Shown: in pieces, positions 6,090-30,059 of the stretch
Layout: every line of letters begins with the position of its first letter
How positions within the stretch are numbered: the first letter of the stretch is position 1
Sequence record: SRR2962707_945
Strand: one strand, 5' to 3'
Length of the DNA stretch: 58,599 nt
Made by a program: the position numbers and the translations under genes
Notes under the pieces: generated by a model
Told to the model about the DNA's origin: nothing
The model's database searches: none
Seen by the model: only the letters and a program-made list of their open reading frames with translations

Positions 6090-6095
6090 GTCTGG

Positions 6096-8859: not shown

Positions 8860-9558
8860 GTGATAAACCCACAACGGCTTACGGGCCCTGAAGCGAGTGT
8901 TATCAAATACGATCTGTTGACGGCGCTAAGCGTCGCGGGATTGAACGGGACACCGACCTTGCAGATGTCATTGATGCGTTTGATCGCAGCAGTCACGGCA
9001 AGGTATAATTGGCGGATGGACGAACTGACGGTGGGCCAGCGCGATCTGGCACGCATGTGGTCGGTCAATGAACGCACCGTCAAGCGCGAGATCAAGCGGC
9101 TAACCGATACAGAAATTCTGATTTGCAAACGACGTGGGGTGCGGGGCAGGGTGGCCGCCTATCGGTTGAACTATTCCCAGATTGCCAAGCTGTCAGAGCA
9201 ATGCTGGCGGCTGGTTGGCCCCGACTTCGACGAACGCATGCGGGGGCGCTATCGCGAGGAGGCCCCGGTGAAGGTGGTGCAGTTGAGCGATTATTCCAAG
9301 CCGGCGGAGGATGACCTGCCCCAAAGTGGCCCCGGCACATGGCAGCGCGCGATGTCGCGGCTCGCCCAGGATAACGGCGATCAGTTTAAGGCGTGGTTTT
9401 CACAACTGCAGTTTATTGACTTTACGGCGGGGGTTCTGACCCTGCAGACCCCAAGCAAGTTTGCACAGCGCTATATTGAAACTCATCTGACGCGGCCCTT
9501 GCTTGCTGCTGTCGAGGCAGAGTTGGGCCCGGTGACCCGGCTGGCGTTCGAAAGCTAG
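8860..9558 (+). CDS. DnaA-like plasmid replication initiator (Rhodobacterales type)
   Basis: N-terminal winged helix ('QRDLARMWSVNERTVKREI') and C-terminal DnaA_N-like domain ('FKAWFSQL...LTLQTPSKFAQRYIETHL'); divergent from parAB. Confidence 0.85.
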   Translation: MINPQRLTGPEASVIKYDLLTALSVAGLNGTPTLQMSLMRLIAAVTARYNWRMDELTVGQRDLARMWSVNERTVKREIKRLTDTEILICKRRGVRGRVAAYRLNYSQIAKLSEQCWRLVGPDFDERMRGRYREEAPVKVVQLSDYSKPAEDDLPQSGPGTWQRAMSRLAQDNGDQFKAWFSQLQFIDFTAGVLTLQTPSKFAQRYIETHLTRPLLAAVEAELGPVTRLAFES

Positions 9559-9565
9559 AGACGGG

Positions 9566-9997
9566 TTAGCGCAACTCTCTGAAGTCGGAAAGGACGTTGT
9601 GGATGGCACAGGCAATATAAGGGTCACCGCCGATCTCTTGGCCCGGGTTCTTTTTCAGTTTCCGGATACTTATGCTAGATCGGCGCGTGTCCTCGCACAT
9701 ATCGCTGTCGCTTTCATAGGCCATTTTCCAATCTTTAAAGGCGCGCTTTTCAACATCGCCTTCTGACATCAGGAATAACTTACGATGACGTTGGTCCTTT
9801 TTGATCCGGTTATAGCATGCCTCGACCTTGTCGCGGTCACCCTCCAGAATCTGGAAACACAGGCGGTCATGATACACCAAAAGGCCGGTGATACCGTCGC
9901 GGGCATTATTCGCCTTTGACGCTGTCAAAAGATCTTTGATTTGCAGCGCATCCAGAGGGGTTGCTGTCGTGCTGAAGTAGATCATTTGATAAACCAC
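9566..9997 (-). CDS. Stand-alone BLUF blue-light photoreceptor
   Basis: 'MIYFS...SKANNARDGITGLL...FQILEG...YNRIKKDQRH...FKDWKM' retains the Tyr, Asn, Gln, Trp and Met of BLUF domains. Confidence 0.92.
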   Translation of the reverse strand: MVYQMIYFSTTATPLDALQIKDLLTASKANNARDGITGLLVYHDRLCFQILEGDRDKVEACYNRIKKDQRHRKLFLMSEGDVEKRAFKDWKMAYESDSDMCEDTRRSSISIRKLKKNPGQEIGGDPYIACAIHNVLSDFRELR

Positions 9998-10312
9998 TGT
10001 GTCAGTTATCCTTTTGGGTGGGGCGAAAGGGACGGGTTAATGTGCGTTAAAATAATAACAACTGAACAGTCAACGCGGGAAGGTTGGGATCGGTTCCAAA
10101 AATAGTTTTGTTTAGACGCTTCTTGAGGGGGCGGCGCATGATGAGACCCACGAGCGCAAGTGGGGGGCAATTTTTTGATGTGCTGAAGAAATGGTGGCTA
10201 CGCTAATGATCAAATGGTGGTGCTTCTAATAGACAAATGGTGGATGCTCTAGTACACAAATAAAAACAGGCTTGGCAGCTGGTGTTGCCAGTGATCGGAA
10301 TGTGGAGAGGGC

Positions 10313-11605
10313 ATGGCAATGACGCAGACAGAGGCATATTTGCCGCGGCACCTTGTGAGCGAGCTGGAAGAGGCGGTCGCGTCCGCGCGTGTTGTGAACC
10401 TGATTGGCCCCAGGCAGGTTGGCAAGACGACCCTCGTTAGGGATTTGTTCGGGCATGGCCGTTTTATCACGTTGGATGATGCCGCGGTTTTGGCGGCTAT
10501 TGAGGCGGACCCGGAAGGGCAGCTTGCCAGCTTGATGCAAGATTTGGGCCCCGCACCGCTGATTATCGACGAGGCGCAGCGGTCCAAGAAGCTGGCGCTG
10601 GCGATCAAGAGGGTCGTTGATGCGGATCGCCGTAAGGGGCAATTTGTTCTGACCGGATCGTCCAACGTTTTCACAACCACGGATGTGGCGGATTCGCTGG
10701 CGGGCAGGATGCGCACGCTGAAACTTTGGCCCTTGTCTGTGGCCGAGATTAAAAGCGCACCGGTCAGTCGTTTGGTGGATTGGGCGATGCAGAAACAACC
10801 CCAGCTTGGCCAGATATCTGACCCCGAACCCCTAGCGCGGGGGGATTACATCGACCTTATTCTGGCGGGTGGGTTCCCGGAAACCAGAACGCTGCCGCTG
10901 CGGTCGCGCCAGCGTGGGTATCGCGATTACATCGATGCTGTGGTTGAACGGGATGTGGCTGACATTACGCCAGTCCGGAAACCGGATGCTTTACGTATTC
11001 TGATTGATCAAATGGCCGCGCGATCGGCGCAAGAGATCAACACCTCTGAGCTGGCAAAGCTGACCAAGCTGCAGCGGGTGACCGTTGATCAGTACCTTGA
11101 TATTCTGATGCGTCTTTCGATGCTGACAAAGCTGGGGGCCTGGACATCGGGCGAAGGTAAGCGCGAGATCAAACAGCCCAAATATCATTTTGTGGATTCA
11201 GGGATCGCCTGCGCCTTGCGCCGTTTTACGGACGCGACTTTTGATATTGATAATACGCCGCAGGCTTTGGGCGGGCTGTTGGAAAGCTTTGTCGTGGGAG
11301 AGTTACAACGCGCCTTGCCGATGCAAGACGCGGATTACCGGATGTATCATTGGCGCAGCGCCGATCAGCGCGAGATTGATATCTTGATTGATGGGGGTAA
11401 TCATCTGGTTAACGTCGAGGTGAAATCATCCGCCACTGTCAGCGCGGATGATTTCAAGCATCTGAAATGGTTTGCAAGTGACGGGCCCGGCCGGACCAAA
11501 ACCTGCACCGGGGTGGTGTTCTATCTGGGTCGCGAAAAGCTGTCTTTCGGGAATGGGAATTATGCCCTGCCCGTCAGCGCCCTTTGGAGCGGGATCACGC
11601 TTTGA
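10313..11605 (+). CDS. AAA_14 ATPase with DUF4143 and C-terminal PD-(D/E)xK-like domain
   Basis: Walker A 'GPRQVGKTT', B 'IIDEAQ', 'LTGS', 'LAGR', 'GGFPE', 'KYHFVDSG', 'EIDIL...EVK'. Confidence 0.88.
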   Translation: MAMTQTEAYLPRHLVSELEEAVASARVVNLIGPRQVGKTTLVRDLFGHGRFITLDDAAVLAAIEADPEGQLASLMQDLGPAPLIIDEAQRSKKLALAIKRVVDADRRKGQFVLTGSSNVFTTTDVADSLAGRMRTLKLWPLSVAEIKSAPVSRLVDWAMQKQPQLGQISDPEPLARGDYIDLILAGGFPETRTLPLRSRQRGYRDYIDAVVERDVADITPVRKPDALRILIDQMAARSAQEINTSELAKLTKLQRVTVDQYLDILMRLSMLTKLGAWTSGEGKREIKQPKYHFVDSGIACALRRFTDATFDIDNTPQALGGLLESFVVGELQRALPMQDADYRMYHWRSADQREIDILIDGGNHLVNVEVKSSATVSADDFKHLKWFASDGPGRTKTCTGVVFYLGREKLSFGNGNYALPVSALWSGITL

Positions 11606-11726
11606 CGGTTTAACGCAGGCCGGTTTTTGAAGGCGGCGGCGTCACTATTGTCTCTATTTTTAGGTTTCACAGCTTGTTAGGGGCCGCCGCCTATATCCTT
11701 GGGCCGACCGCCTGAAGGAACCTAGC

Positions 11727-12851
11727 ATGCCGTTAACCTGGGACGCGCTTTACCTTGGCAAAACTGCCTTGGATATTGATGAGACTGAAAATGATGGGGG
11801 ACAAGCCGACAATGCCGCCGTGTTGGTTGGCAACACCTACGGCACTGCTGGTGATCCGCTTTGGGATCACGTTGTTTCTGTCACGGCCATCGACAACAAC
11901 GGTCAAGCGGACATACTCGATAGTGATAACAATTTTCGCTATGATCAACTGAGGTTTGATGCCGATGATGGCAATGGTTTGCAAACCAATCTCTTTGACT
12001 CCGCACCGATTTATAACGCGACGCTGACCTATACCGACGGTACCACCGCAACGATTACGGCGGTGATCATGCAGGATACGCAGGGAAATCTATTTCTTGC
12101 GCCGGAATATTCAGCCGGCCCCGATATAGATGCGATGGAGGCCAAGGCGATTGAAAGCTTGACGCTGGATTCACTGAATTCAACGACCGGCGATGCCGCG
12201 CCATCGCGGATTCAGACCGAATTTGTTTGCTTTGCCTCTGGCACCTTGATTGCCACCCTTGACGGGGACCGCGCGGTCGAGGATTTGGTGCCCGGTGATC
12301 TGATTATGACCCACGACAACGGACCACAGCCGCTGTTGTGGCGGGGCGCGCGGACCCTCAAGTTTTCTGTCGCCGCTCAGCATCCGCAGCAGCCGATTGA
12401 ATTCAAACCCGGCGCGCTTGGGGTCGGGCAACCGAAACACAGGTTGGTTGTTTCACCGCAACATCGCATGTTGTTGCACACCGGAGATCGCGAGGTGCTT
12501 GCCCCTGCTCTTGGGTTTGTTGGTGCTGCGGGCGTGCGTAAAATGCGCGGGTCGCGATCTGTCACCTACCATACATTGCTTTTGGCCAGTCACGAGATCA
12601 TCATTGCCAATGGTGCATTGGTCGAGAGTTTTTATCCCGGCCGTGTGGCGATGGACGTATTGACCGCAATGCAAAAACTGATGGTGGTTGTGCTGCGGCC
12701 CGCCATCTTGCGGGATCCAGATTGCGGTTTTGGCCCCTATGCGCGCAAGACCATCAGCCGCCGCGACGCCGAGGCGCTTGTGCGTGGCGCTGGCATCCGC
12801 AGCAGGTGCAAGGCGGGCGACGTGCAGGGGCAAAGACCCCTCGTGCATTAG
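11727..12851 (+). CDS. Hint-domain (Hint_2 / BIL-like) protein
   Basis: Acidic N-terminal domain followed by 'VCFASGTLIAT...VEDL..GD', 'VSPQHR', 'YHTLLLASHEIIIANGALVES'; AAGGA RBS. Confidence 0.88.
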   Translation: MPLTWDALYLGKTALDIDETENDGGQADNAAVLVGNTYGTAGDPLWDHVVSVTAIDNNGQADILDSDNNFRYDQLRFDADDGNGLQTNLFDSAPIYNATLTYTDGTTATITAVIMQDTQGNLFLAPEYSAGPDIDAMEAKAIESLTLDSLNSTTGDAAPSRIQTEFVCFASGTLIATLDGDRAVEDLVPGDLIMTHDNGPQPLLWRGARTLKFSVAAQHPQQPIEFKPGALGVGQPKHRLVVSPQHRMLLHTGDREVLAPALGFVGAAGVRKMRGSRSVTYHTLLLASHEIIIANGALVESFYPGRVAMDVLTAMQKLMVVVLRPAILRDPDCGFGPYARKTISRRDAEALVRGAGIRSRCKAGDVQGQRPLVH

Positions 12852-15915: not shown

Positions 15916-16449
15916 CTAACAGGCCGGTGTGTTGGCTTCCGACATCCGGGCAATCGAGTAAAAGTCAAACTCCTCGGATACGGTTCCTTTTCCCCATATC
16001 AGCCTTGGGTCCGACGTACCGATCGAAACAGCGCGAAACGGCAAATCGGCCACCGGTTGACCGATCTCTAACGCGTGTTCCCAGTCGACCGGAGTGATCG
16101 TTGAACCGTTCACAATCAGATTGGCGGGTTTGAGATCGCCATGGATCAGCCCCTTGGCGTGAACAGCTGTGAAGGTGCCCGCGAGCTGCTTGAGCAAACC
16201 CGGCCAAAGATCGAGCGACACCTGCGACAGGGGTGACCCGATTATCAGCTCACGGCGCACGATCAGAACGTCCTCAAGCAATTCAACATTTACAATACGG
16301 GGGACGTTCAATCCAGACAGTCGCTGCATGGATTGAAGCTCGTTCTCTAAAAGCTGGCGAGCCAGACCAGATTTTGCACGCTTTTCAACAACGTTCTGCC
16401 CGTTCCAATACGTTATCTCGTGCTTGGGCTTGGCTGATAGTGGGGTCAC
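15916..16449 (-). CDS. Miniature Ser/Thr protein kinase-like protein
   Basis: 'VVEK' Lys, alphaC Glu ('LENE'), catalytic loop 'HGDLKPAN', 'DWE' in place of DFG; no glycine-rich loop and a truncated C-lobe. Confidence 0.75.
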   Translation of the reverse strand: MTPLSAKPKHEITYWNGQNVVEKRAKSGLARQLLENELQSMQRLSGLNVPRIVNVELLEDVLIVRRELIIGSPLSQVSLDLWPGLLKQLAGTFTAVHAKGLIHGDLKPANLIVNGSTITPVDWEHALEIGQPVADLPFRAVSIGTSDPRLIWGKGTVSEEFDFYSIARMSEANTPAC

Positions 16450-16480
16450 GACGGAACACCGGCATGGAGAGGGCAGCAGA

Positions 16481-17272
16481 TCACATCAGCAAAAGTTTGT
16501 CGCGCAAGGCGTACCAACCACCAGTCTCTGAAATGATTGCCGGAACGTTGTACTGACCGAATATCCGCGTAGCACCGCGCCTGCGAAAAATGTCAAACAT
16601 AACCGCGCTTGCCGGCCCGTTCGCTTTTTTCGTGGCACTCCCGCCGCCTATTGTTGACAGCCGCATTTCAACATTAGCGCGCCAGTGCAGTTCCATTGCT
16701 GTGCGATTGATGAGGGTTTCATATTTCAATTTCACGCCTGCACGCGCCAATGCTACGGCGACGCCCGTTGCAAAGCCAACTGCGCCGATGGGGATCGCTG
16801 CCCCGGCGAGTTCGGTACTGCGAATTCCTGCTTTAAAAACCTTGGCTGTCATGCATGCTTTAACCCATTGCTGGACCGTCATACTGCGTGGATATTTCTT
16901 GGCTATTCCATCGAGCATCTTCAAATGTGCAAGCGTTGATCCAGTGGCGTTTGTGTGCATCATAATGCCTGATACGTCGACTTGCGTGGCTTGTGAGGCA
17001 AGCGTTCCTGCAGTTGCGAGCGTCGCTGCACCCATTTTTTTATAGGAGCGGTTTAACATGTACTTGCTCGTTCGCGGGGAGGCAGTTTGAGTGAACCCAT
17101 GTGTCATGAAAAAAGGGTTTGGCGGGGCAAGTTCGTCGATACCATCAACTTCCGCATTAAGATCTTTGTAAAAATGCAAAAGAACGATCGGAACGCCAAT
17201 GCCGATTTCTCCGCCAACAGTCTCTGCAATCTTCCAGGCTATCGACTCTGCGGCTTCTTCAGTTGCACCCAT
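16481..17272 (-). CDS. Hypothetical protein, candidate T6SS effector
   Basis: 263-aa ORF with GGAG RBS, divergent from vgrG; Gly/Ala-rich hydrophobic stretch 'LAGAAIPIGAVGFATGVAVALARAGV'; no signal peptide evident. Confidence 0.7.
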   Translation of the reverse strand: MGATEEAAESIAWKIAETVGGEIGIGVPIVLLHFYKDLNAEVDGIDELAPPNPFFMTHGFTQTASPRTSKYMLNRSYKKMGAATLATAGTLASQATQVDVSGIMMHTNATGSTLAHLKMLDGIAKKYPRSMTVQQWVKACMTAKVFKAGIRSTELAGAAIPIGAVGFATGVAVALARAGVKLKYETLINRTAMELHWRANVEMRLSTIGGGSATKKANGPASAVMFDIFRRRGATRIFGQYNVPAIISETGGWYALRDKLLLM

Positions 17273-17577
17273 TTAAAAACTCCGAATTATTAAGCGCCAA
17301 CGCGCGTTATGATGAAATGACTTGTACTCGAACAAAAATATATTTTACGGATTATGGTATCGTCCTAACATTTTTGGGGCAAATACAATAACAAATTTTA
17401 AGGTGCATTTCTAAGTGCGCCAAGGATAACTCCGGCGTCAGTTGCTTTGCCTAGGAAGCTTTGGAATTTGGCCCAGCTTCACGGGCAGCATACCAAGTTT
17501 GCAGCTTACGCTCACATAGGGGTTGGTTTTTGAGACCTATGCTCCATACTCGGAGCGCATTGAGAATAGGACATAGC

Positions 17578-19485
17578 ATGCCTGAAGAATCGATAGTTGC
17601 GATCCTGTCGGTCGACAAAAAGCTCGACCTAAACATTACCGATTTTTCGATACACGAAACTTTGTCCGAGGTTCCGACGTACAGCGTGACTGTATTGGAC
17701 CAGAGTACACAATTGGACAGTCTTGTCGGTGTTACCTGTGAAATCAACTTTGCGGCTGATGCCTATACGGATTCAGAAACGCGCAGTTTTAGCGGTCTTG
17801 TCATGTCCGTTGAGCGTGTGTTGGATCGCTCTGGCTCGCCATACCTGAAGCTGGAAATACGTCCGAAACTGGCTGTTCTCGGCCTTAGTGTGCACAGCGC
17901 AATTTATCAAAAATCCACGTCTTTGGATATCTTGGAGAAGGTTCTACAACGCAATGGGCTGGCGAACGTCAAGGTTACCGGGACCATACCTCAAGCCAAG
18001 CGCGATACGGTTATTCAGTATAATGAAAACGACTTGGGTTTTTGCCGTCGCATCCTCGCCGAAGAAGGGCTCGCTTTCTATTTTCATGACGGCACGTCGC
18101 CCGAAACACTGGTGTTGCATGACGTGCGTAAACCTTTCCCCTCTGATCACAAAGAGATCGAGCTGACGGATGCTCAGATGTCAGACGTTGGGCGCATTGA
18201 AGCTTCAAGCCTTTCCTTGAGGCGGTCCTTGGGTCCAGACAAGGTCGAACTGACCCACTATGACGCAAGCGACGCGGATCAGGTGACGGCGGGGCCAGCT
18301 GTTTCAAGCGAAGCCAAATCACCCGTCACGCCTACGGTGCTTGAGTACCGGCCAGTCATTGTTGGCGATATCAAAAAAGACGAACTGAAGGTTCTTACCA
18401 ACGCAGCCCAGCGTCCAGAATTGGCGATAGCTGGTCATTGTGAACATCCAGCCATGCACTTGGGGCAGGCGCTTGATATTGCGAGCAGCGAATTTCCAGA
18501 CATGGCTGGCCGCTATATTATTTCGAGCATCACGTATACGCCAACGCGCGGCAACGCATTGATGTGCCGGTTTGAAGCTGTCCCAAAGGGCCATGTGCCT
18601 GCGCCTGAACGTTTGCCAAAACCGCTAATTGCGGGGGTACACAATGCGATTGTTGTCAGCTCACAAGCTTCGGCAAAAGCCGGCGACCCTGCCTGTGATG
18701 AGAAGGGGCGTGTGCTTGTCCAGTTTTTTTGGGACGTAGCCGACAGCAATAGCGGTTATATCCGCGTGTCGGAGCCGTTTGCTGGCAAGGGGTATGGTGC
18801 ACAATTCACGCCACGCGTCGGGCATGAGGTTCTGGTTTCTTTTTTGCATGGCGACCCGGATGCGCCCGTCGTTACCGGACAACTATACACTGAAAAACAC
18901 AAGCCGCCGTTTAACGAAAAGAACACTCACAAATCTGGATTTCGCACCCAGTTAAAGGACGGCAAGCAAAACGAGTTGGAGTTTAACGACGAAAATGACA
19001 AGGAACTTATTGGACTGCGTGCTGGCCGGGACTTTGAGTTGATTGTGAATGAAAACGTGACGCGCGAGGTCAAGAAGAACGACACAACTAAGATCGAGGA
19101 AAAAAGTAAGCTTGATATTGGTGACTCTTGGGACATCACAGTCAAGAATGATCAGACGACCAAAGCTGATAAAATCACGCTTACGGGTGACAGTGAAATC
19201 ACCTTGAAGGTTGGATCTTCTAAAATTGTTCTGAGTTCGAGTGGCATTGTCATTGATGCGCCAAAGGTCGAGATTAAGGGCCAATCCAAAGTTGATGTAG
19301 AGAGCAAGGGCCAGCTGGCTTTAGCTGGCATGTCGAGCAAGCTTGAAGCGAAAACAGCGCTTGACGTCAAAGGTATGAATGTCTCGGTGAAGGGCAGTTT
19401 AAAAACTTCACTTGAGGGAACTATGAGCGAAGTCAAAGGGTCAGGAATGGTGACGATCAAAGGCGGCGTCACCATGATTAACTAG
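17578..19485 (+). CDS. vgrG: T6SS spike protein VgrG
   Basis: 'IQYNENDLGFCRRILAEEGLAFYF', 'DEKGRVLVQFFWD', 'PRVGHEVLVSFLHGDPDAPVVTG', gp5-like C-terminal repeats; no effector extension. ATG 17578 with AGGA RBS. Confidence 0.95.
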   Translation: MPEESIVAILSVDKKLDLNITDFSIHETLSEVPTYSVTVLDQSTQLDSLVGVTCEINFAADAYTDSETRSFSGLVMSVERVLDRSGSPYLKLEIRPKLAVLGLSVHSAIYQKSTSLDILEKVLQRNGLANVKVTGTIPQAKRDTVIQYNENDLGFCRRILAEEGLAFYFHDGTSPETLVLHDVRKPFPSDHKEIELTDAQMSDVGRIEASSLSLRRSLGPDKVELTHYDASDADQVTAGPAVSSEAKSPVTPTVLEYRPVIVGDIKKDELKVLTNAAQRPELAIAGHCEHPAMHLGQALDIASSEFPDMAGRYIISSITYTPTRGNALMCRFEAVPKGHVPAPERLPKPLIAGVHNAIVVSSQASAKAGDPACDEKGRVLVQFFWDVADSNSGYIRVSEPFAGKGYGAQFTPRVGHEVLVSFLHGDPDAPVVTGQLYTEKHKPPFNEKNTHKSGFRTQLKDGKQNELEFNDENDKELIGLRAGRDFELIVNENVTREVKKNDTTKIEEKSKLDIGDSWDITVKNDQTTKADKITLTGDSEITLKVGSSKIVLSSSGIVIDAPKVEIKGQSKVDVESKGQLALAGMSSKLEAKTALDVKGMNVSVKGSLKTSLEGTMSEVKGSGMVTIKGGVTMIN

Positions 19486-19494
19486 GATCAGAAA

Positions 19495-20064
19495 ATGCTA
19501 CGTAAAATTCCATTTGATACCAGCGGCCCGATCCTTGAGCGGTTTGCCCTTAGCGAAGAGGCGGCGGGAGCCGCATCCGCTGAGCTGGAGCCCGAAGCGG
19601 CGCTTGGGGCATTGTATAAGGGTGAGCATATGGTCGATATGGCCAATTTTTTCGCTCATGGTATGCCGCCGCGAGAGGGTGTGTGTTGGGCCGTTGCTGT
19701 GCTGCGAGAAATGCGGCCAGAGATGAGCGCGGCAGACAAAGAGATATTGGCGCTGGCTGAAAAGTGGATCAAGGACCCGCAAGAAGCTGTGCGTATCCGT
19801 CTTATGGAAGAGGCCGAGAGCCGAGACAGTGAAGACCCGATTTTTTGGTTGTGCAACGCCGTTGCGTGGAACGGGTCGGGCAGCATGGCCCCCAAAGACG
19901 GGCCCGTGGTTTTGCCTCCGATCGGGTTATATGCGTCGGCTCTTTTGGGCGCTGTCGGGCTACTTGGCGGTACCACAGAAGAGAGCCTGAAAGCCCTTCA
20001 TGAGAGCGCCTATCGCTGGGGTATGAATGTGGCGCAAGGAGGCTGGCCAAATCTGGCTGACTGA
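19495..20064 (+). CDS. DUF6931-like T6SS-associated protein
   Basis: 'FFAHGMPPREGVCWA', 'AEKWIKDP', 'GSGSMAP..GPVV'; lies between vgrG and PAAR. Confidence 0.7.
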   Translation: MLRKIPFDTSGPILERFALSEEAAGAASAELEPEAALGALYKGEHMVDMANFFAHGMPPREGVCWAVAVLREMRPEMSAADKEILALAEKWIKDPQEAVRIRLMEEAESRDSEDPIFWLCNAVAWNGSGSMAPKDGPVVLPPIGLYASALLGAVGLLGGTTEESLKALHESAYRWGMNVAQGGWPNLAD

Positions 20065-20085
20065 TTTCTAGACGGGAGCTAATAG

Positions 20086-20382
20086 ATGCCTGGACCACCT
20101 GCCGCGCGCATTACAGATATGCATGTTTGCCCGATGACAACGGGCCCTGTTCCGCATGTTGGCGGCCCTATTATTGTACCCGCCGCCCCGACGGTTCTGA
20201 TTGGTATGATGCCTGCCGCAGGGATGGGGAGTATGGTCACATGTGTTGGGCCCCCTGATACAATCATTAAGGGCAGTGCGACGGTTTTGGTTTCAAAAAA
20301 ACCGCTTGCACGCATGGGTGACAGCTGTGCCCATGGGGGCGCGATTGTTCTTGGGTGTCCGACTGTTCTGGTTGGAGGCTGA
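20086..20382 (+). CDS. PAAR domain spike-tip protein
   Basis: 'PAARITDMHVCP', 'PAAGMG', 'PLARMGDSCAHGG'; 98 aa, no toxin extension. Confidence 0.93.
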   Translation: MPGPPAARITDMHVCPMTTGPVPHVGGPIIVPAAPTVLIGMMPAAGMGSMVTCVGPPDTIIKGSATVLVSKKPLARMGDSCAHGGAIVLGCPTVLVGG

Positions 20383-20698
20383 CATCTGACCGCATTTTCA
20401 AAGCCTTCCTGAGATAAGCCGCTTTGAGGCAAAACTCTGGCACCGATCATTATTGGTGCCTTGGAAAAAGTTTATTTATTACAAACCTTTAAGAGAATGC
20501 TGTAAAACTGGGGAATTTTCTTTTGGCATTTTTCGGCCATTAGTACTATTAAGTATTTGGTCCGTAAGGTTTTTGATGTCCAGCTTGAAGTCGTATTTTC
20601 GTACTTCAACTAGAGGCATTTAACGCGAGTGGTGCCAGCCTATGTTTCGGAACGTTATTTTTTAAAATCAAAGCTTACCCAAAAGGCAAGTCTTTACC

Positions 20699-21550
20699 AT
20701 GGCACGTATTAATTGGCTCGCTTTTCGAGAAATATACTTTAAAATTCTGGTTTCAATACTCGTTGTTATTGCCGCAATGCTTTTGTTGCAGGACGCGCTT
20801 AACCATCTGAAATTACGCGCGTTAGTAGCTGAGGCTACTTCTTCGAGATTGCAAATTTCGGCGTCGACGATCGAGTCTGCGATCGTCCGCTCGGAAGGTC
20901 TTGGCCTTTCCATGGATGAAATGGCTGGCCTGCAAGATTTGCTGGATCGCGAGCGTGAGCGGGATCCGAGCGTTGTGCAAATCGAAATAGTTTCTCCTAT
21001 CGGAGCACCTGTTGTTTCTTCGGGTTCCGGGCCGCTTGTTCCGACGGGCACCGATCTGGCTGAGGACATCGAGAAAGAGCGGGAGCAAGCGTTGAGGCGG
21101 GTTCTGGGCGCGCGCGATAAGGTGACGTTGTTCGACGCGGGTTCGCATTTGTACACAGGTCGTGTCATCTACGATTCAAGCGACGCCATCATGGGGGCAA
21201 TTATCCTCACGACGCCGACGGTTGCATATATGCAGCGCGCAAATCTGGCCTCCGAGAAGATGAGGAAATCTTATCTGATCGTCTTTGCAATTGTCGCGGC
21301 ATTGCTCATTCCCTTTATAGTGGTTCAGTTTTCCGGGGTGCGCTACGCGTTCCGCGCATTCGATCCAGATCTGGTTGGCAAGGGGGTGAGTAATGGTGAC
21401 GATTTCCCGCCGGAAACCCGGGAATTGCTTGCTTCAATCGAGATGGGGAATAGCCAGTATTCCAAAAGTTCAGAAGAGCTGGATGACATTCTAAAGCATG
21501 ATGCGGCAGGCATGAGTGATGAACAGGCCGCGCTTGGGAAGAAAGTATGA
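20699..21550 (+). CDS. Membrane protein with TM-periplasmic-TM sensor-like topology
   Basis: Two hydrophobic helices flanking ~160 aa; no kinase or other output domain; overlaps the MFS start by 4 bp. Confidence 0.72.
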   Translation: MARINWLAFREIYFKILVSILVVIAAMLLLQDALNHLKLRALVAEATSSRLQISASTIESAIVRSEGLGLSMDEMAGLQDLLDRERERDPSVVQIEIVSPIGAPVVSSGSGPLVPTGTDLAEDIEKEREQALRRVLGARDKVTLFDAGSHLYTGRVIYDSSDAIMGAIILTTPTVAYMQRANLASEKMRKSYLIVFAIVAALLIPFIVVQFSGVRYAFRAFDPDLVGKGVSNGDDFPPETRELLASIEMGNSQYSKSSEELDDILKHDAAGMSDEQAALGKKV

Positions 21551-23616
21551 GCGATATTTCACAAGCTGTTCGCGTCTCGCTGATTTCCGGCTTTTCACGA
21601 CGTCTTTTCCTAAGCACCTCGCTGGCAATGGTGCTTGCCGCGACGTTGAGCCTGATAATCACCGTCGTACATTTCAACGCAGGTTTGCGCCCTTACCTTG
21701 TAGATAAGGCGCGCGCCGTTGCTGTGTCGGTCCAGCAGGACATCGAATATGCAATGAGCATTGGTATTCCGTTTGAAGAAATTCGCGGTCTGGACCAGCA
21801 TATGGACGCTCTGGTTCGGGAGCATCCCGAAGTGAGTGCAATGCGTGTTGATGCCGTTTCGACTGGTGTTGATGGGTCTGGTGCGTTTGACAGTGAAGCG
21901 GACACAAAAACGGGCATCGCCTCCCTCATTATTTATGCTGTGTCCGAACTTTCCTCTGCCCTGTCTCTAGGCGACGAGTACGTTGATACCGTGTCTGTCG
22001 AGGTCGTTCAAAACGGTGTCGTGCTGGCAAACGTCGTCTCACATATGGATGAGAGTTATCTAAATGGTAAGATGACGTCGGTGTTTTTCGATACGCTCGT
22101 GATTTTGATTGCGGTGTCGCTGGTCGCGCTAGAGGTCATCGTCGTTCTTTCAACATCGCAACTTTCTGAGCCTTTCCTGGTTGCTGAAAGGGCCCTGAAC
22201 TATCGCGCAGCGGGGGACCTGAGGCAGTATCAAGGTGGGCTTGGCCGCGGTCGCCTTTCACGGTTCATTAGGACGCTGAACGTTTACAATGCCGCGCTTC
22301 GGGATCGGCTGAAATCGGCGATGGAGAGCGTCAAAGATACGCGCATCCGTGAAGAGCTGGCTGGGTTTTCAGAACGCACCAAGCTTTTTGTGACAGATGC
22401 GCGGCAGAAAGCATCGATCATGGATGCACGGATTCCGTTGTTTGTTTTCTGCTTTGCGGAGGAGCTGCAAAAATCCTTCCTGCCACTGTTTGTTGCAGAA
22501 TTCTATTCCGAGGGTGATCTGTTTTCGCGCGATATTATGATGGGTCTGCCGATTTCGGCGTTCATGTTTGTGATCGCCGCGTTTACACCATTTGCCGGCA
22601 AGCTGGTCGATAAATTTGGCAACAAGCCGTTGTTTCTAGCTGGATTGGTCCCTGCCATCGGTGGCTACTTGATGTGTTATCTGGCGCAAAACAGTAATGA
22701 TATTCTGATCGGTCGGTCCATGACCGCTATTGGCTATGCCGTTATTACCATCAGCTGCCAAAGCTATATTGCAAATGTTGTTGTCGCCGAAAACAGGGCG
22801 CGCGGAATGGCCGTCTTTGTCGGCGTCTTGATGAGTGCAACCATGTGTGGAACGGCGATTGGTGCCATCTTGGCTGATTGGCTCGGTTTCAAAGCCGTAT
22901 TCTTGTTTGCGATTTGCTTTGCCGCGATGGCCGGATTTCTGGGTTGGAACATGTTGAGCACAGATTTGCCCGCTGTGGAAAAGAAGAAACCAGCGGCAAA
23001 CTTGAGCAGAAGTCCGATTGCGACGTTGCTTCGAAATTCTCAATTCGTCTTGATCGTGCTTTTCTGTGCGATACCGGCCAAAGTGATACTGACAGGTTTC
23101 CTTTATCTTTATGTGCCGATTTATCTGGCCAGTCTTGATGCGACCCAGTCCGAGATCGGGCGCGTCATGATGCTGTATTCCTTGATTATTATTCCGATCA
23201 GCCCGCTTGCCTCGGGATTTGCGGATCGTCTGGGCAAGAATTTGTGGATGGTTATCTTTGCGACGATTGCGTCCGGAATCGTTCTGCTAGGGCTTTATCA
23301 AAACGCCAGTGTTGCAATGGTTCTCGTTGTCGTCGCGGCGCTTGGGGTTGTGCATGCATTCCTGAAGGCTCCGCTCATTGTTGCGGCGATGGAGGCAGCA
23401 GAGAAAAGCCCGGATATCACCCGGACTGGCGCGTTAAGTCTCTTGCGGACAAGCGAACGGATAGGTTCGGTTATCGGGCCGGTCGTTGTTGCTGCGATGC
23501 TGGTCGTCCTCGATTTTGGCGAAGTTGCCGCGATCTTGGGCATTACGGTGGCTATACTTGGTGGGGTGATGGCTATCCTTTCGCTTAACCAGAAAGGTCG
23601 CGCGTCTCATGTATAA
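21547..23616 (+). CDS. MFS transporter fused to an N-terminal sensor-like domain
   Basis: C-terminal ~400 aa with MFS motif A 'GKLVDKFGNK' and 'GFADRLGK'; N-terminal ~290 aa with TM-periplasmic-TM-helical linker. Confidence 0.85.
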   Translation: MSDISQAVRVSLISGFSRRLFLSTSLAMVLAATLSLIITVVHFNAGLRPYLVDKARAVAVSVQQDIEYAMSIGIPFEEIRGLDQHMDALVREHPEVSAMRVDAVSTGVDGSGAFDSEADTKTGIASLIIYAVSELSSALSLGDEYVDTVSVEVVQNGVVLANVVSHMDESYLNGKMTSVFFDTLVILIAVSLVALEVIVVLSTSQLSEPFLVAERALNYRAAGDLRQYQGGLGRGRLSRFIRTLNVYNAALRDRLKSAMESVKDTRIREELAGFSERTKLFVTDARQKASIMDARIPLFVFCFAEELQKSFLPLFVAEFYSEGDLFSRDIMMGLPISAFMFVIAAFTPFAGKLVDKFGNKPLFLAGLVPAIGGYLMCYLAQNSNDILIGRSMTAIGYAVITISCQSYIANVVVAENRARGMAVFVGVLMSATMCGTAIGAILADWLGFKAVFLFAICFAAMAGFLGWNMLSTDLPAVEKKKPAANLSRSPIATLLRNSQFVLIVLFCAIPAKVILTGFLYLYVPIYLASLDATQSEIGRVMMLYSLIIIPISPLASGFADRLGKNLWMVIFATIASGIVLLGLYQNASVAMVLVVVAALGVVHAFLKAPLIVAAMEAAEKSPDITRTGALSLLRTSERIGSVIGPVVVAAMLVVLDFGEVAAILGITVAILGGVMAILSLNQKGRASHV

Positions 23617-24634
23617 ACGTATAATGATCTTGTTGTGCATGTTGACAGGCTTGGCGCTGCTGATGTCTGTAAACCCCGTATCCGCGCAGTCCAATAGCGG
23701 CGATGACCGGGTGCAACAGGTGCACATGGTCGTTTGGCGTGGTTGCGAGGCGGCCTGTCTTGGCTTCATCCGTTATTTTGAAGATCGGGATCTGCCCGTT
23801 AATGTTACCGTTACGGACGTGAGCCGCGATAAAACCCAGCTTCCCATTATTCAAAAACAGTTGATTAAGGAGAGGCCAGATCTAGTGGTCACTTGGGGGA
23901 CGAGCGTATCGCGCGGTATCTTGGGGACCATAACCGAGTTTGGTTCGGCCTCGGCGCTCGGGGATATACCCGCTGTTTTCATGATTGTCGCCGATCCGGT
24001 AGGCTCGCAGCTTGTAGAAAGCTATGATGCAAGCGGACGCCCAATGATTTCCGGCGTACGCAACCGTGTGCCTGAAAAGGTTCAGCTTAATCTGCTGTTT
24101 GAGTACTATCGACCTAATAAAATGGGCGTGCTGAACAGCCCAAGCGAGCTGAACTCGGCGTTAAACACCGAAAGCTTGCGCGCGATTGCTGATGAATTTT
24201 CGTTTGAATTGGTCGAGCATCTTTATACCCCTGACGAAAATGGTGAAATAGACCCAAGCCAAATTCCCACAGCCCTCGCAGAGCTAAAGCGGTTGGGCGC
24301 GGATGCGGTTTATGTCGGCTCTAGCAGCTTCAATTTGGAAAATCAGTCAGCTTTCGTCGATGCCGCAACGGCGCTAAATTTGCCGGTCTTCAGCGCATAT
24401 GCACAGATGGTGAAAGATGCTGGTGCTTTGATGGCCGTTGGAACAAGCTATTCGAACGTTGGGCGTTTGGCGGCAGTGCAAGCAGAGCACGTTGTATTGG
24501 GCGGCATCGAGCCTGGCGATTTAGAGGTTAAGTCGCTGAATAGATATTCGGTTATTCTAAACATGAGATCTGCAAGAAAACTATCGCTATATCCACCTTT
24601 ATCCTTGTTAACAGTAGCTGAAATTGTACAGTGA
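23609..24634 (+). CDS. ABC-type substrate-binding protein (ABC_sub_bind family)
   Basis: Signal peptide; 'PDLVVTWGT', 'IPAVF.IVADPVGSQLVES', 'LNMRSARKL'. Confidence 0.83.
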   Translation: MYKRIMILLCMLTGLALLMSVNPVSAQSNSGDDRVQQVHMVVWRGCEAACLGFIRYFEDRDLPVNVTVTDVSRDKTQLPIIQKQLIKERPDLVVTWGTSVSRGILGTITEFGSASALGDIPAVFMIVADPVGSQLVESYDASGRPMISGVRNRVPEKVQLNLLFEYYRPNKMGVLNSPSELNSALNTESLRAIADEFSFELVEHLYTPDENGEIDPSQIPTALAELKRLGADAVYVGSSSFNLENQSAFVDAATALNLPVFSAYAQMVKDAGALMAVGTSYSNVGRLAAVQAEHVVLGGIEPGDLEVKSLNRYSVILNMRSARKLSLYPPLSLLTVAEIVQ

Positions 24635-24665: not shown

Positions 24666-26072
24666 ATGAATAATCTCAGTGACGCCATATCCGGAGAGAA
24701 TGCATTTGGCGTTTTCCTTAAGGATGAGAAAACAACGTATAGAGCTTTGCGGTCCGCATTTAATGCGGCTCAAGCAAGTTGGCGCAGTCTTTCTGAGACA
24801 CCTGAATCCTTAAGTGATCGTGAAAAGGCAGCAGCCAATTCTGCGGCTTGGGCAACGCTAGCCGAGCTGTGCGAAGCGTGCCTGACGTCCACGTCAAAAG
24901 ATCTCGAGGTGCTGTCATGGTTTGTCGCGGCGCAACTGCATTCGGCGAAACCCTTTGAGAATTGTCGTGATGCGCTGGCCCTATTGAGCGGTCTTGTCGA
25001 GACGAGCTTGGATCAGCTGCACCCGATGCCGCCAGTTGAAAAGCTGAAGGGCGATACCGATGAAGCGCGTGCGAGCGAAATTGCCGCGCTGCGAATGCGC
25101 CCGTTTGTGCAACTGTTCGGAGAGGTTGAAGGCTCGGGTCTTTTGATCGGGCCGATGACAAACCTGAATTTGATCGGCGAGGTGACGTTTGGAAAAATCA
25201 CTCTTGCCGAAAAAGATGGCGCACTTGATGGCATTCGCGCGGATGTAGGTGCCCATATTTCTGCTGAATCTGACGCATTGACGCGTAAGATCGAAGCGCT
25301 TCAGCAGATGGTTGTTTTTATTCAGACAATTGAAACTTCGGTAAAGAGCTACGCTGCCCAGCATTCTCAGACCCCGCCACTGATCGGTTACGGCGTTCGA
25401 CTGATGAAGGATGTTTTGACCGCCTGCGAGAAGATGGTGGATGGAACGGGTTTTGCTTGGCCAGGACAGGACGAGGGTGATGCTGAACCGGCTACCGCAG
25501 AAGGTGGCAATGTTGACACTGACGTCGAGACTGGCGCGCCGGTGCAAGGCCAAAAAGTAGCGGCAGGCGGCGGTTTTAACGCGAATTTAAATGTGTCTAA
25601 TCGTCATGATGCGCTTGTGGCGATTGCTCAGCTTGCTGGGTATTTCCGCAAGGCTGAACCGCATTCGCCGATCTGCCTTTTGCTTGATCGCGCTGTACGC
25701 TGGGGAAACCTGAATGCGGCCGATCTGTATCGAGAGATATTGACCGAAGGTTCTGTCGGTATGTCGCAAATGGCGTTGATGACCGGTCTGGAAAGCCAAG
25801 GCTTTTCCGACAACTTTGCGCGTCGTGGTGCCGGGGCCGCAGGTACAGTTGAGCACCCCGTGCTGGATAATTACGCCGCCGCAATTCCTGTGCCAAAGGA
25901 TACATCCGAATTATCGGCATCCGCGCCGCAAGATTTTGCGTCAATGCAAGCTGTGCCACCCGCTGTTCAAGCGGTCAAGCCGTCGGTTGATCCCGTAGCG
26001 GAAGAGCCGACGACTGATGCTGAACCAGTCGAGGCTGAACAAAATTTACCGGTAAAAAGTTTTCAGTGGTAA
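24666..26072 (+). CDS. tssA: T6SS TssA (ImpA N-terminal domain)
   Basis: 'SKDLEVLSW', 'LHP', C-terminal 'YFRKAEPHSPICLLLDRAVRWG'. Confidence 0.88.
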   Translation: MNNLSDAISGENAFGVFLKDEKTTYRALRSAFNAAQASWRSLSETPESLSDREKAAANSAAWATLAELCEACLTSTSKDLEVLSWFVAAQLHSAKPFENCRDALALLSGLVETSLDQLHPMPPVEKLKGDTDEARASEIAALRMRPFVQLFGEVEGSGLLIGPMTNLNLIGEVTFGKITLAEKDGALDGIRADVGAHISAESDALTRKIEALQQMVVFIQTIETSVKSYAAQHSQTPPLIGYGVRLMKDVLTACEKMVDGTGFAWPGQDEGDAEPATAEGGNVDTDVETGAPVQGQKVAAGGGFNANLNVSNRHDALVAIAQLAGYFRKAEPHSPICLLLDRAVRWGNLNAADLYREILTEGSVGMSQMALMTGLESQGFSDNFARRGAGAAGTVEHPVLDNYAAAIPVPKDTSELSASAPQDFASMQAVPPAVQAVKPSVDPVAEEPTTDAEPVEAEQNLPVKSFQW

Positions 26073-28655: not shown

Positions 28656-30059
28656 GTGATTAGCAGTTCATCAACGGAAAACACGGGCTCTCCGGTGCCA
28701 ATGGCATCGGGGGGTTTGTCAGACGAAGATCAAGCGCTTAGCCGCTTGCAGGATCGGTTCCAGACAATTGAGCAACTCACGTCGTTTCTACGGCGTGCGG
28801 TTCTCGATATTGAAAGGGTGCTCAGCAAACAGCTTACCGAGATTATCGAAGCACCTTCCTTTCAAAGGTTGGAGGGGCGCTGGATGGGCTTGGCGAGCGT
28901 TGTTTGGGCCGCAGATGTTTCAAGCAACATTAAAATAAAAATCCTGGACCTGAGCTGGGAGGAATTGTCGCGCGATTTACACTACAAAAACGAAATTCGC
29001 CGATCGGTTCTGTACACGCTTCTGGGCCAAAGAGAGTTAGATACTCTGGGCGGCGAACCCGTAGGCATTGCAATGATCGACCATGGTTTGTCCATGAGTT
29101 TGGATACAGAGTTCGACGATCTCTATACTGCGCAATTGATCTGCAGCATGGCCGAAGCATGTATGTGTCCGATAATTATGGGCGTTTCAGATGATTTTTT
29201 CGGCGAGACCGATGCGGCTTGGTTCACTGACATACGGCGGGTCGATAGTGTTTTACACGGAGACGAGTATCGCGGATGGCAAACCCTTCGGGGCGTCCCT
29301 AACGCGCGGTTTCTAGGGGTCGTTTTGTCGAAAACCCAATTGCGCGGCCGCTACGAAGACAGGGATGTGGGCTTTTTCTACCACCAACAGCCAAGCGAAA
29401 GCCAAGGGCTGTGGGCATCGGGTTGTTACGACTTTTTGCGCACCGTCATTGCAGAATTTCATCGCTGCGCCTGGTTCGGGTTTTTGAAGCTCGTCAGCAA
29501 CAAACCGGGCGTTGGGGCTGTCGTTGGTCCATCGACCCACCCTGTACCTGTTGGCTGCATGCGCAATGCGCGCGCCAATATTCGCATGACGCGCAATCAG
29601 GCACATGCTTATGGGGACAATGGCTTTATGGCTCTGGCCGAAAGTACAAAAAATAACATGCTCTATTTCGTCGGCAATCGCACGGTTACGGATTGCAGTG
29701 GGTCATCGGAAAAAGAGATCGTGACGCAAATGCAATCTGTGATGATTGCTTGCCGGATTGTTCATTATATCAAAGTCCAGATCAGGGCGTTGATAGGTCA
29801 GGTGAAAACTGCCGCTGAATGCGAAGTAATCCTAAACAACTGGTTTGACGCATACGTCTCCCCGTCAAGTTCGTCCCTTGAGTTGCAAGCCAAGTATCCG
29901 CTTCGCGGCGCGCGGGTCAGCGTATCAGATGGCGCATCAGATAGTGCGCGCTTTCAATGCAGTATTGTTGTGCGTCCGCAGTATCAAATTGACAACGTGC
30001 TTGGTGAAATCCAGCTTAGAACGGATTTTGGCACCGGCAGTTCAGGGGAGCCCGCGTAA
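28656..30059 (+). CDS. tssC2: Second, divergent TssC-like subunit
   Basis: 'FQRLEGRWMGL', 'ELDTLGGEPVG', 'CRIVHYIKV', 'KYPLR', 'RPQYQID'; start could be ATG 28701. Confidence 0.85.
   Translation: MISSSSTENTGSPVPMASGGLSDEDQALSRLQDRFQTIEQLTSFLRRAVLDIERVLSKQLTEIIEAPSFQRLEGRWMGLASVVWAADVSSNIKIKILDLSWEELSRDLHYKNEIRRSVLYTLLGQRELDTLGGEPVGIAMIDHGLSMSLDTEFDDLYTAQLICSMAEACMCPIIMGVSDDFFGETDAAWFTDIRRVDSVLHGDEYRGWQTLRGVPNARFLGVVLSKTQLRGRYEDRDVGFFYHQQPSESQGLWASGCYDFLRTVIAEFHRCAWFGFLKLVSNKPGVGAVVGPSTHPVPVGCMRNARANIRMTRNQAHAYGDNGFMALAESTKNNMLYFVGNRTVTDCSGSSEKEIVTQMQSVMIACRIVHYIKVQIRALIGQVKTAAECEVILNNWFDAYVSPSSSSLELQAKYPLRGARVSVSDGASDSARFQCSIVVRPQYQIDNVLGEIQLRTDFGTGSSGEPA

Follow-up and report, generated by a model that had tools for sequence, protein, structure and literature searches.

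Inspection of a 58,599-nt stretch of DNA from sequence record SRR2962707_945 (the window), which is 100% identical to a contig (L001) of Sulfitobacter sp. CW3, revealed three overlapping genes, here called p1, p2 and p3, within a type VI secretion system (T6SS) cluster. Our model, to which we assign a probability of about 0.5, is that a binding-protein-assisted Cache/HAMP heterodimer gates a transporter of the major facilitator superfamily (MFS), and that this module has been recruited by one T6SS subtype. The 283-amino-acid (aa) product of p1 (20699-21550, + strand) is predicted to be a stand-alone receptor half comprising a first transmembrane helix (TM1), a periplasmic PDC/sCache-like domain, a second transmembrane helix (TM2) and cytoplasmic helices, and it lacks an output domain. 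The 689-aa open reading frame (ORF) of p2 (21547-23616, + strand) combines an N-terminal module, p2N (aa 1-290; 21547-22416), with an MFS domain of about 12 transmembrane (TM) helices (aa ~299-689; 22441-23616). p2N appears to consist of TM1, a PDC-like periplasmic domain with a variable insert, TM2 and a HAMP-like two-helix linker. The third gene, p3 (23609-24634, + strand), encodes a 341-aa secreted solute-binding protein of family PF04392 (ABC_sub_bind). The p1/p2 overlap is 4 nt (ATGA), the p2/p3 overlap is 8 nt, and 31 nt separate p3 from the next gene (24666-26072), which is TssA (PF06812, expectation value (E) 5e-19; TIGR03363, E 4e-32, below the TIGR03363 cut-off). An initial annotation had described three overlapping genes directly upstream of tssA, receptor topology in p1 and the first ~290 aa of p2, an MFS output domain, and a binding protein without an ABC (ATP-binding cassette) permease or ATPase partner. 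The ORFs were exactly as it gave them, the T6SS is complete, and the other three descriptions are borne out by the hydropathy, fold, profile and gene-content results that follow.

We examined the architecture of p1 first by hydropathy and structure prediction. p1 has 65 database relatives at E ≤ 1e-3, and neither Pfam nor NCBIfam gave a match. A Kyte-Doolittle plot placed two hydrophobic segments at aa ~13-35 and ~192-214, about 155 residues apart. The PDC/single-Cache fold is recognized by a long N-terminal helix followed by a five-stranded sheet with flanking helices, the whole lying between two TM helices. In the AlphaFold2 (AF2) model of p1 (mean predicted local distance difference test score (pLDDT) of 83.7), a helix, two strands, a helix and three strands are found between two long helices. 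Foldseek returned 40 PDB matches at E ≤ 1e-3 for this model, including the sensor domains of WalK/YycG, DcuS, CitA, Tlp3 and KinD; the best was 9a5d_A, a full TM-PAS-TM-HAMP model of WalK (E 8.4e-9), and DcuS (3by8) was matched at E 2.2e-4. The nearest named cluster in the ESM Atlas was sCache_3_2 (score 0.94), which we treat as a lead only. From its modeled structure, the periplasmic part of p1 is a predicted PDC/Cache-type fold. The possibility that the two-TM regions are mere signal anchors was ruled out by the confident PDC fold of p1 and by the conservation of the family.

The N-terminal module of p2 has a similar layout. p2 has 207 relatives (clusters) in the database at E ≤ 1e-3, and within its first 210 aa are two hydrophobic segments (~22-44 and ~178-200), which are followed by a linker of ~90 residues. 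The AF2 model of p2N had a mean pLDDT of 74.3, with values below 50 for residues 106-122 (a disordered insert), and it placed two helices with a connector after TM2. Sensor matches like those of p1 were obtained with Foldseek, all of them weak, the best being the WalK model at E 2.8e-3 and none reaching E ≤ 1e-3. When the p2N profile was compared with PDB sequences, the matches were insignificant coiled or repeat proteins alone (best E 0.066). Scanning 21 close p2N family members with Pfam at E ≤ 5 gave HAMP in one (E 0.067) and Cache in none. A phmmer search with p2N against 1.8 billion representative proteins identified 217 relatives at E ≤ 1e-3, and 35 of these more distant proteins were scanned with Pfam. 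MFS_1 was present in 30 of the 35, and in four a HAMP domain was recognized between the module and the MFS domain (28.6, 30.4, 33.4 and 24.9 bits against a cut-off of 25).

A central feature of the model is that p1 and p2N are two copies of one receptor module. We compared alignments of the p1 family (A2) and the p2N family (A3), each containing 21 sequences from Rhodobacteraceae, Vibrio, Marinomonas, Terasakiella and others. The two families aligned in hhalign at 96.3% (E 1.6e-9, 251 columns), a comparison between membrane proteins in which TM segments can inflate the score. Both families contain the periplasmic motif G-[LI]-x-[FML]-x-E-[MI]-x-G-L, which aligned at the end of the first long helix. 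BLASTP of p1 against p2N found nothing, and the relation is visible by profile-profile comparison alone. On this profile evidence p1 and p2N are remote paralogues. In about 25 of the 150 p2N phmmer matches listed, the module does not start before residue 195 and the protein is 780-1000 aa long, so that an additional N-terminal extension precedes it. The extension was p1-like in all three proteins tested: P0213 (98.5%, E 1.7e-15), P0232 (97.6%, E 4e-12) and an 855-aa protein encoded in locus L076 (96.9%, E 1.3e-10). Because single-chain p1~p2 proteins are frequent, we argue that p1 and p2 work together physically. Most simply, the two proteins would be the halves of a dimer-like sensor/HAMP bundle that feeds one MFS domain. 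The heterodimeric sensor of the initial annotation thereby gains indirect support from the fusions, and the pairing itself is a reading of them.

Further evidence for a receptor came from proteins in which the same module has a different output. A p2N profile search of 401 Pseudomonadota genomes gave matches in 42 genomes. Most matches span only TM2 and the linker (positions ~180-280) of other proteins, and we take these as a HAMP-like similarity. The N-terminal sensor part was matched in 12 genomes: as an MFS fusion in eight, as a hybrid kinase in three, and on a 6-kb contig that could not be classified in one. The hybrid kinases have the architecture sCache_3_2-HAMP-(PAS-GAF)-HisKA-HATPase-REC, and two of the three genes lie directly beside a PF04392 gene. 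The p2N family aligned with the sCache_3_2-HAMP head of one of these kinases at 95.7% (E 9.2e-9, 236 columns), and aa ~209-260 of p2 aligned with the stretch of the kinase in which Pfam places HAMP. This kinase carries PF17203 (sCache_3_2), and the link of p2N to PF17203 was seen in a profile-to-sequence comparison only. The kinases of loci L077 and L079 thus resemble the p1-p2-p3 module in having an N-module homologous to p2N and a PF04392 gene next door, but they differ in having a kinase/receiver output, in that no p1-like partner gene was seen, and in that Pfam recognizes sCache_3_2 and HAMP there and not in the window proteins. Hence the sensor head and the PF04392 neighbor are common to bona fide signaling proteins, and the output alone differs. 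Of the Cache and HAMP domains that the initial annotation had proposed to look for, both are suggested by the hhalign comparison with the kinase and a Cache-type fold by the Foldseek comparison of p1; Pfam recognized neither in the window proteins.

The output of p2 has the features of a transporter. MFS_1 (PF07690) was found at aa 299-618 (E 5e-44, 151.1 bits against a cut-off of 33.4), and we counted about 12 helices by eye between aa ~296 and ~680. No named MFS subfamily was reached: the best of the NCBIfam matches were to drug/H+ antiporter-type families (2_A_01_02, Bcr/CflA and Tet), the highest score was 57.4 bits against the 131 required for TIGR00880, and all 25 families listed were far below their cut-offs. 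MFS proteins carry motif A, G-x3-D-[RK]-x-G-[RK]-[RK], between TM2 and TM3 of the fold, and the motif is repeated in the second half. Reading p2 by eye, we found one motif-A-like sequence in each half, GKLVDKFGNK (aa 351-360) and GFADRLGKN (aa 557-565), whose positions are mostly invariant in the p2 alignment (A1). The MFS domain is also the best-conserved part of p2 in A1. With this conservation and with motif-A-like sequences in both halves, the MFS domain looks functional.

The p3 protein was assigned to PF04392 with an E value of 3e-26 (92.8 bits against a cut-off of 25.9) and has a signal-peptide-like hydrophobic N-terminus. Its sequence relatives in the PDB are 3lkv, 6hni and 3lft, and it is not TrpX as defined by the equivalog NF041285 (87.6 bits against a cut-off of 390). 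Residues 44-50, near the mature N-terminus, form the motif R-G-C-E-x-x-C, which was invariant in 21 of 21 aligned family members. This motif of the T6SS-linked p3 family falls outside the region that aligns with the solved PF04392 structures, and a disulfide, a redox site or a metal site are possible roles for it. L-Trp, L-Tyr and L-Phe are ligands of solved PF04392 proteins (PMC10443332) and make a first set of candidates for p3. The window encodes no ABC importer permease or ATPase. The sole ABC genes, at 44145-47904 immediately after TssM, encode an HlyD-like membrane-fusion protein and a fused ABC-ATPase/ABC-2 permease protein of exporter type. We considered the possibility that the three genes are the remnant of an ABC importer, and this was ruled out by the lack of permease and ATPase genes in the window together with a consistent MFS partnership across 35 loci. 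In that survey, a p3 homologue adjoined the p2 match in 35 of 36 loci, the exception being L018, which consists of 2.7 kb only. p2 and p3 are also joined in two database proteins, P0086 and P0102, although these could be frameshift artefacts given the 8-nt overlap of the genes and their occurrence in 2 of 207 clusters.

A structure prediction was carried out with p1 (residues 1-230), p2N (1-290) and p3 (27-341) as three chains, without the MFS domain, and the placement of p3 was scored. The interface score (interaction prediction score from aligned errors, ipSAE) of p3 was 0.52 (0.51, 0.52 and 0.52 in the individual runs), whereas the best of three controls, including one in which p2N was replaced, scored 0.00. 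Contact agreement between runs was at least 94% and partner pLDDT was at least 83. When this score was calibrated, 51 of 78 solved complexes passed the mark, as did 2 of 108 mismatched pairs; scores of 0.60 or lower accounted for 5 of those 78 solved complexes and for all 4 passing mismatches (of 180), so that p3 scored in a range where a pass is usually wrong, except for a complex that was likely beforehand. A three-chain job is unlike the calibration set, and the family alignments of this study were not used in the prediction. As the MFS domain was left out, docking on the sensor and docking on the transporter are indistinguishable. The prediction therefore weakly supports the docking of p3 on the sensor that the initial annotation had proposed and does not separate it from docking on the transporter.

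These results fit the following scheme. p1 and p2N would pair as a heterodimer, as their paralogy and the natural fusions suggest, with a periplasmic PDC (sCache-like) domain, a pair of membrane helices and a HAMP-like helical hairpin supplied by each half. The hetero-pair would thereby form the dimeric sensor and four-helix HAMP bundle that is built elsewhere from two identical kinase or chemoreceptor chains. A single MFS domain would sit on this bundle, with the HAMP-like linker joined directly to MFS helix 1. In the periplasm p3 would bind a small molecule, the loaded p3 would dock on the sensor, and the resulting conformational change would pass through the HAMP-like bundle and switch the MFS transporter on or off. 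The module would be self-sufficient and older than its link with the T6SS. The recruiting subtype would be the one that has two TssC paralogues and, at the ClpV/Fha junction, an SBP_bac_3-like gene. Through co-expression with the T6SS machine, T6SS-linked physiology would respond to a chemical cue from outside, as has been proposed for the vts genes of V. anguillarum. The analysis shows the genes with their domains, folds, paralogy, fusions and neighborhoods; that p1 and p2 form a heterodimer, that p3 docks, which way control runs, which substrate is moved and whether the T6SS is affected are inferences. We favor gating because the head is homologous to kinase sensors that keep the same binding-protein partner, because the HAMP position directly precedes MFS helix 1, and because p1~p2 fusions exist and the MFS domain looks functional.

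Parts of this scheme have precedents. In LuxP-LuxQ, TorT-TorS, NspS-MbaA and ChvE-VirA, a binding protein without a transporter of its own docks on the periplasmic PAS/PDC-type domain of a receptor, and the signal crosses the membrane, often via a HAMP domain. The p1-p2-p3 module differs from these receptors in that its output is an MFS transporter rather than a kinase or cyclase/phosphodiesterase, and in that its sensor, on which the complex prediction weakly supports docking, seems to pair a full chain with a paralogue that has no output. In UhpC-UhpB, DctA-DcuS and LysP-CadC, a kinase or regulator is informed by a transporter that is a protein distinct from the sensor. As in these systems, a transporter fold and a sensor would act as one signaling unit, whereas here the sensor domains are fused ahead of the transporter, suggesting the opposite direction of control. 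HAMP-coupled receptors drive kinases, cyclases, phosphatases and chemotaxis arrays, and a transporter output would, if true, extend this logic to membrane transport. It would constitute a new class of HAMP output and provide a tractable model for the control of a rocker-switch transporter by the cell's surroundings. Giving a dimeric sensor a single output, through a paralogue without output or through internal duplication, is a design principle that may apply to other fused receptors.

A binding protein encoded beside a secondary transporter is also the layout of an uptake system, and p3 could instead pass a nutrient to the MFS domain, with the PDC domains serving as a docking scaffold only. 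In the TRAP (tripartite ATP-independent periplasmic) system DctPQM and the TTT (tripartite tricarboxylate transporter) system TctABC, a binding protein works with a non-ABC secondary transporter, and extra membrane parts serve docking. The membrane part of the p1-p2-p3 module differs in being an MFS protein rather than DctM or TctA and in its additional Cache/HAMP module; no Pfam family for DctQ/DctM or TctA/TctB was found in p1, p2 or the T6SS cluster of the window. A binding-protein-dependent MFS importer would be a third class of such secondary transporters beside TRAP and TTT, and its linkage to the T6SS would reflect uptake of something that the T6SS helps release or capture. We regard this as the main alternative to gating, and as clearly less likely than gating. 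The near-invariant adjacency of p3 and p2, the two p2-p3 fusion proteins, the strongly conserved MFS domain with its two motif-A-like sequences, the lack of an ABC partner for p3 in the window and the survival of the three genes apart from a T6SS all speak for an importer. In addition, the distant relative L070 lies among genes for NMT1_3, a xanthine/uracil permease and a 2-hydroxyacid dehydrogenase, and the ligands of solved PF04392 proteins (PMC10443332) are nutrients. However, the N-module is homologous to the sCache_3_2-HAMP heads of kinases that themselves pair with PF04392 proteins, and a HAMP between the docking site and the transporter has no obvious role in simple delivery. The nearest curated MFS families are of efflux or antiporter type, though all fell far below cut-off, and in the complex model, itself weak, the placement of p3 was lost on replacement of p2N with the MFS domain absent.

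Genes found beside the module also point toward signaling rather than uptake. Membrane HAMP-SpoIIE (PP2C) receptor genes adjoin the module in three unrelated loci (L021, 7217-9223; L073, 995-3088; L071, 11442-13499). In L021, an extracytoplasmic function (ECF) sigma gene lies 3′ of the three genes, and a gene for a 404-aa protein with the same N-module precedes them. The PP2C and ECF sigma neighbors hint at a partner-switching or sigma-factor route. In two Marinomonas genomes (L028 and L024, ~5190-8850), genes for a dCache_1-PAS histidine kinase and a sigma-54-dependent response regulator were observed directly upstream of p1. This pair occurs both in a T6SS-linked locus and in a genome where no TssC was found. 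Two further neighbors, a glutathione peroxidase gene (L033, 5458-6012) just 5′ of the four-gene form without T6SS linkage and a gene for Fe/Mn superoxide dismutase (L023, 13318-13902) just 3′ of another copy of the three genes, may be a coincidence or a tie to oxidative stress.

We determined how regularly the module accompanies a T6SS by mapping the window proteins with tblastn onto 36 related loci, one of which is the window's own contig. T6SS genes were present in the available flank of 29 loci (again counting the window's contig). Seventeen of these have the Rhodobacteraceae arrangement, identical to that of the window. The remaining 12, from Vibrio, Marinomonas, Oceanospirillaceae and Aliamphritea, have the order p1-p2-p3-VgrG-DUF6931-PAAR-(354 aa)-TssA and so on, with divergent orientation in L023 and L035. 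Six loci (L019, L021, L025, L028, L033 and L036) have no T6SS gene in the flank, L019 and L025 being on short contigs, and L018 was too short to classify. The 401-genome sample contained a third arrangement (L076 and L080), TssB-TssC-TssC2-(E)-F-G-ClpV-[855-aa fused p1~p2 MFS]-p3-p4-Fha-TssJKLM, in which TssC is 72% identical to TssC of the window. A plasmid collection contained one relative, an unannotated match on a 1.7-Mb Vibrio replicon with the gene order of the other Vibrio loci. Gene order is thus kept across Alpha- and Gammaproteobacteria, and the module is a persistent companion of one T6SS subtype at three different positions. This subtype is marked by a second, divergent TssC paralogue (‘ImpD’-like), which in the window lies at 28656-30059 immediately 3′ of TssC and which is common to the module-carrying Rhodobacteraceae, Vibrio, Marinomonas and Vts-type genomes. 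The same hardware is therefore common to marine Roseobacter-group bacteria, vibrios and Marinomonas.

A fourth gene of the window extends this pattern. p4 (35791-36522, + strand) encodes a 243-aa secreted SBP_bac_3-like protein and lies between ClpV and Fha; its match to PF00497 (E 1.9e-5, 24.9 bits) is below the cut-off of 26.4. Homologues 39-44% identical to p4 occupy the same ClpV/Fha junction in L076, L080 and L081, and in L076 and L080 they lie directly 3′ of the fused MFS and PF04392 genes. A gene of this kind is found at the ClpV/Fha junction in all three arrangements of the module-carrying subtype, and p4 is probably the fourth member of an ancestral module. A relation of p4 to a 247-aa gene upstream of the three genes in Terasakiella was ruled out (BLASTP E 33).

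The arrangement in L076 and L080 connects the module with genes already in print. The T6SS cluster of Vibrio anguillarum contains genes for an MFS transporter and periplasmic binding proteins, VtsA-D (PMC8861277, PMC6079546, PMC3352281); vtsABCD are described as T6SS transporter genes with roles in the stress response and hcp expression, and as part of the T6SS3-type cluster that Aliivibrio wodanis, V. anguillarum and Moritella viscosa have in common (PMC8861277). The mutant phenotype reported for this gene set comprises changes in hcp expression, in RpoS/VanT and in the stress response. A gene table for a salmon-ulcer Vibrio lists ClpV / MFS / ‘ABC transporter protein’ / ‘transporter protein’ / FHA (PMC10385127), which is the order of the fused p1~p2, p3 and p4 genes between ClpV and Fha in L076 and L080. 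The window resembles this system in having MFS, PF04392 and SBP_bac_3-like genes inside a T6SS cluster with two TssC paralogues. It differs in that p1 and p2 are separate genes and in that p1, p2 and p3 stand at the head of the operon, with p4 alone remaining at the ClpV/Fha junction. We infer orthology of the window genes to VtsA-D from the gene order in L076 and L080, rather than from V. anguillarum sequences. The link to vtsA-D in the initial annotation agrees with PMC8861277 and PMC6079546 and with the gene order in L076 and L080. In V. fluvialis, the corresponding two genes are listed at the left flank of VflT6SS1 (PMC5371669). Within the literature open without subscription, a boundary that leaves out Weber 2009 among others, we found no description of a Cache/HAMP-MFS architecture, of p1/p2 paralogy or fusions, of kinase or PP2C relatives, of T6SS-free copies or of a mechanism for VtsA-D, in agreement with the earlier statement that no mechanism had been described. 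That T6SS clusters of this type contain MFS and binding-protein genes is already in print; what appears to be new is their receptor architecture.

It is a tentative possibility, and one that we hold with clearly less confidence than gating as such, that the ligand-gated secondary transporter is the extracytoplasmic sensor of the Vts-type T6SS and sets when the machine is made or fired. The module gives concrete parts and testable residues to an idea printed in 2009, that the V. anguillarum-type T6SS senses an outside signal. Such a sensor, if true, would trigger the T6SS in a new way that differs from TagQRST-PpkA.

Alternatively, the MFS domain could be a non-transporting platform that relays the state of the sensor to TssA, Fha, TssL/M or a PP2C/partner-switching route setting RpoS, as a trigger analogous to TagQRST-PpkA. 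Such a role would suit the location of the module inside a structural T6SS operon at three places in one subtype, the Fha gene in the cluster, the HAMP-SpoIIE phosphatases in three loci and the effects on RpoS and hcp ascribed in V. anguillarum to these genes or this T6SS (PMC8861277, PMC6079546). However, the MFS domain is the best-conserved part of p2 and keeps the hallmarks of a working transporter, the T6SS cluster of the window contains neither a protein kinase gene nor a PP2C phosphatase gene, and the three genes are intact in genomes where no TssC was found. We judge a platform of this kind to be quite improbable, and less likely than nutrient uptake by p3 and the MFS domain.

Several observations weigh against our model of a gated transporter recruited by a T6SS. 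The p2N model is moderately confident and its Foldseek matches are all above E 1e-3; in the window proteins Pfam recognized no HAMP domain and, at E ≤ 0.01, assigned neither p1 nor p2 to a Cache family; and the hhalign scores are subject to the inflation by TM segments mentioned above. The docking score of p3 lies in the unreliable range of its calibration, with the MFS domain left out, and the two p2-p3 joins may be artefacts. With respect to the T6SS, no TssC (PF05943) was found in whole genomes G003 and G004, for which completeness is not given and which hold L021 and L028, respectively, and the three ORFs of L028 are intact; TssC is encoded elsewhere in genomes G002, G005 and G006. In the 401-genome sample, T6SS genes lay near the module in 4 of the 12 genomes that carry it, and most of the more distant relatives are unlinked. 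We also constructed a maximum-likelihood tree of MFS domains with 45 rows, leaving out L001 because it duplicates the window, L020 and L035 because they are broken or partial, and L018 by the length filter. The label ‘no T6SS in flank’ requires five changes on this tree, several deep branches of which are long and of unsure placement. Finally, VflT6SS1 was silent under the laboratory conditions tested (PMC5371669). Because the three genes are intact without TssC, linkage has changed repeatedly and distant relatives are unlinked, a T6SS-specific role is not required. Gene order shows a real link with the T6SS, but not an obligatory one, and the association proposed by the initial annotation holds for 29 of the 36 close loci but not for the two genomes with intact genes and no TssC or for most of the module-bearing genomes of the larger sample.

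The same tree bears on whether the genes are passengers, that is, an ordinary transporter cassette that travels with the T6SS island without a functional tie. L028 nests beside a T6SS-linked Marinomonas copy (support 100/96), and the Rhodobacteraceae T6SS group forms one clade (100/99) that is sister to an unlinked four-gene form, p1-MFS'-SBP-MFS. Gain or loss of linkage on several occasions and its presence in only 4 of the 12 genomes would suit a passenger, as would the treatment of the MFS and binding-protein genes as flanking sequence by the authors on VflT6SS1 (PMC5371669). On the other side are the 4-nt and 8-nt overlaps, indicative of translational coupling, the 31-nt distance to tssA, the retention of the module by one T6SS subtype in Alpha- and Gammaproteobacteria despite three positions, and the effect of vtsA-D on hcp expression reported in PMC8861277. 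The label ‘T6SS-linked’ is also clustered on the tree, requiring 6 changes against a shuffled mean of 22.9, a value as low in 0 of 200 shuffles, although relatedness alone can give such clustering. On balance a passenger role is the least probable of the explanations considered, and it too is less likely than nutrient uptake.

The T6SS cluster that encloses the module spans 17461-43819 on the + strand. By Pfam assignment its order is VgrG, DUF6931, PAAR, p1-p3, TssA, Hcp, TssB, TssC and the TssC paralogue, followed by TssE/F/G, ClpV, p4, Fha and TssJ/K/L/M, ending at 43819. The genes for VgrG, DUF6931 and PAAR (17461-20382) are on the same strand as p1 and lie 316 nt upstream of it. In L008 and L017, VgrG is divergent from p1, so that p1 is the first gene, and in L008 DUF6931 and PAAR are divergent as well; transcription in these loci must therefore begin ahead of p1. 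The proposal that the three genes head the operon thus holds for L008 and L017 but is qualified in the window by the upstream genes on the same strand. The 316-nt, AT-rich region between PAAR and p1 (20383-20698) may function as the promoter of the main operon. A promoter scan found no sigma-70-like site in this region, and no sigma-54 consensus was found there at ≤2 mismatches. The promoter and terminator scans were uninformative, giving 2 sigma-70-like sites where 4.3 were expected and 7 terminator-like sites where 6.9 were expected; the sigma-54 consensus search gave 40 matches against 38.7 expected, none of them in the region between PAAR and p1. The region contains a perfect 6-bp inverted repeat at 20439-20460 (GGCACC, 10 nt, GGTGCC), which could be an operator or a weak terminator.

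Portions of p1, p2, p3 and tssA are covered by short contigs from a near-identical strain, among them a contig that spans the p1/p2 junction. They derive from two runs labeled metatranscriptomic but probably of DNA, one possibly of RNA and one of DNA; such contigs cannot show a transcript, and we drew no conclusion from them.

Other genes of the window lie outside the T6SS cluster. Divergent from VgrG (15916-17272, - strand) are two genes: the product of one (177 aa) is weakly similar to protein-kinase/RIO/APH families, with every score below cut-off, and that of the other (263 aa) has no family match. A 220-aa protein with a Peptidase_C58 (YopT-type cysteine protease) domain is encoded at 49425-50087. 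Among the products of the regions 7157-12851 and 50130-57688 are a ParA-like ATPase, a BLUF photoreceptor and proteins with DnaA_N and Hint_2 domains; these regions also contain a second (N-type-like) ATP synthase operon beside an amino-acid-kinase gene, and this replicon context looks like that of a Rhodobacterales plasmid or chromid.

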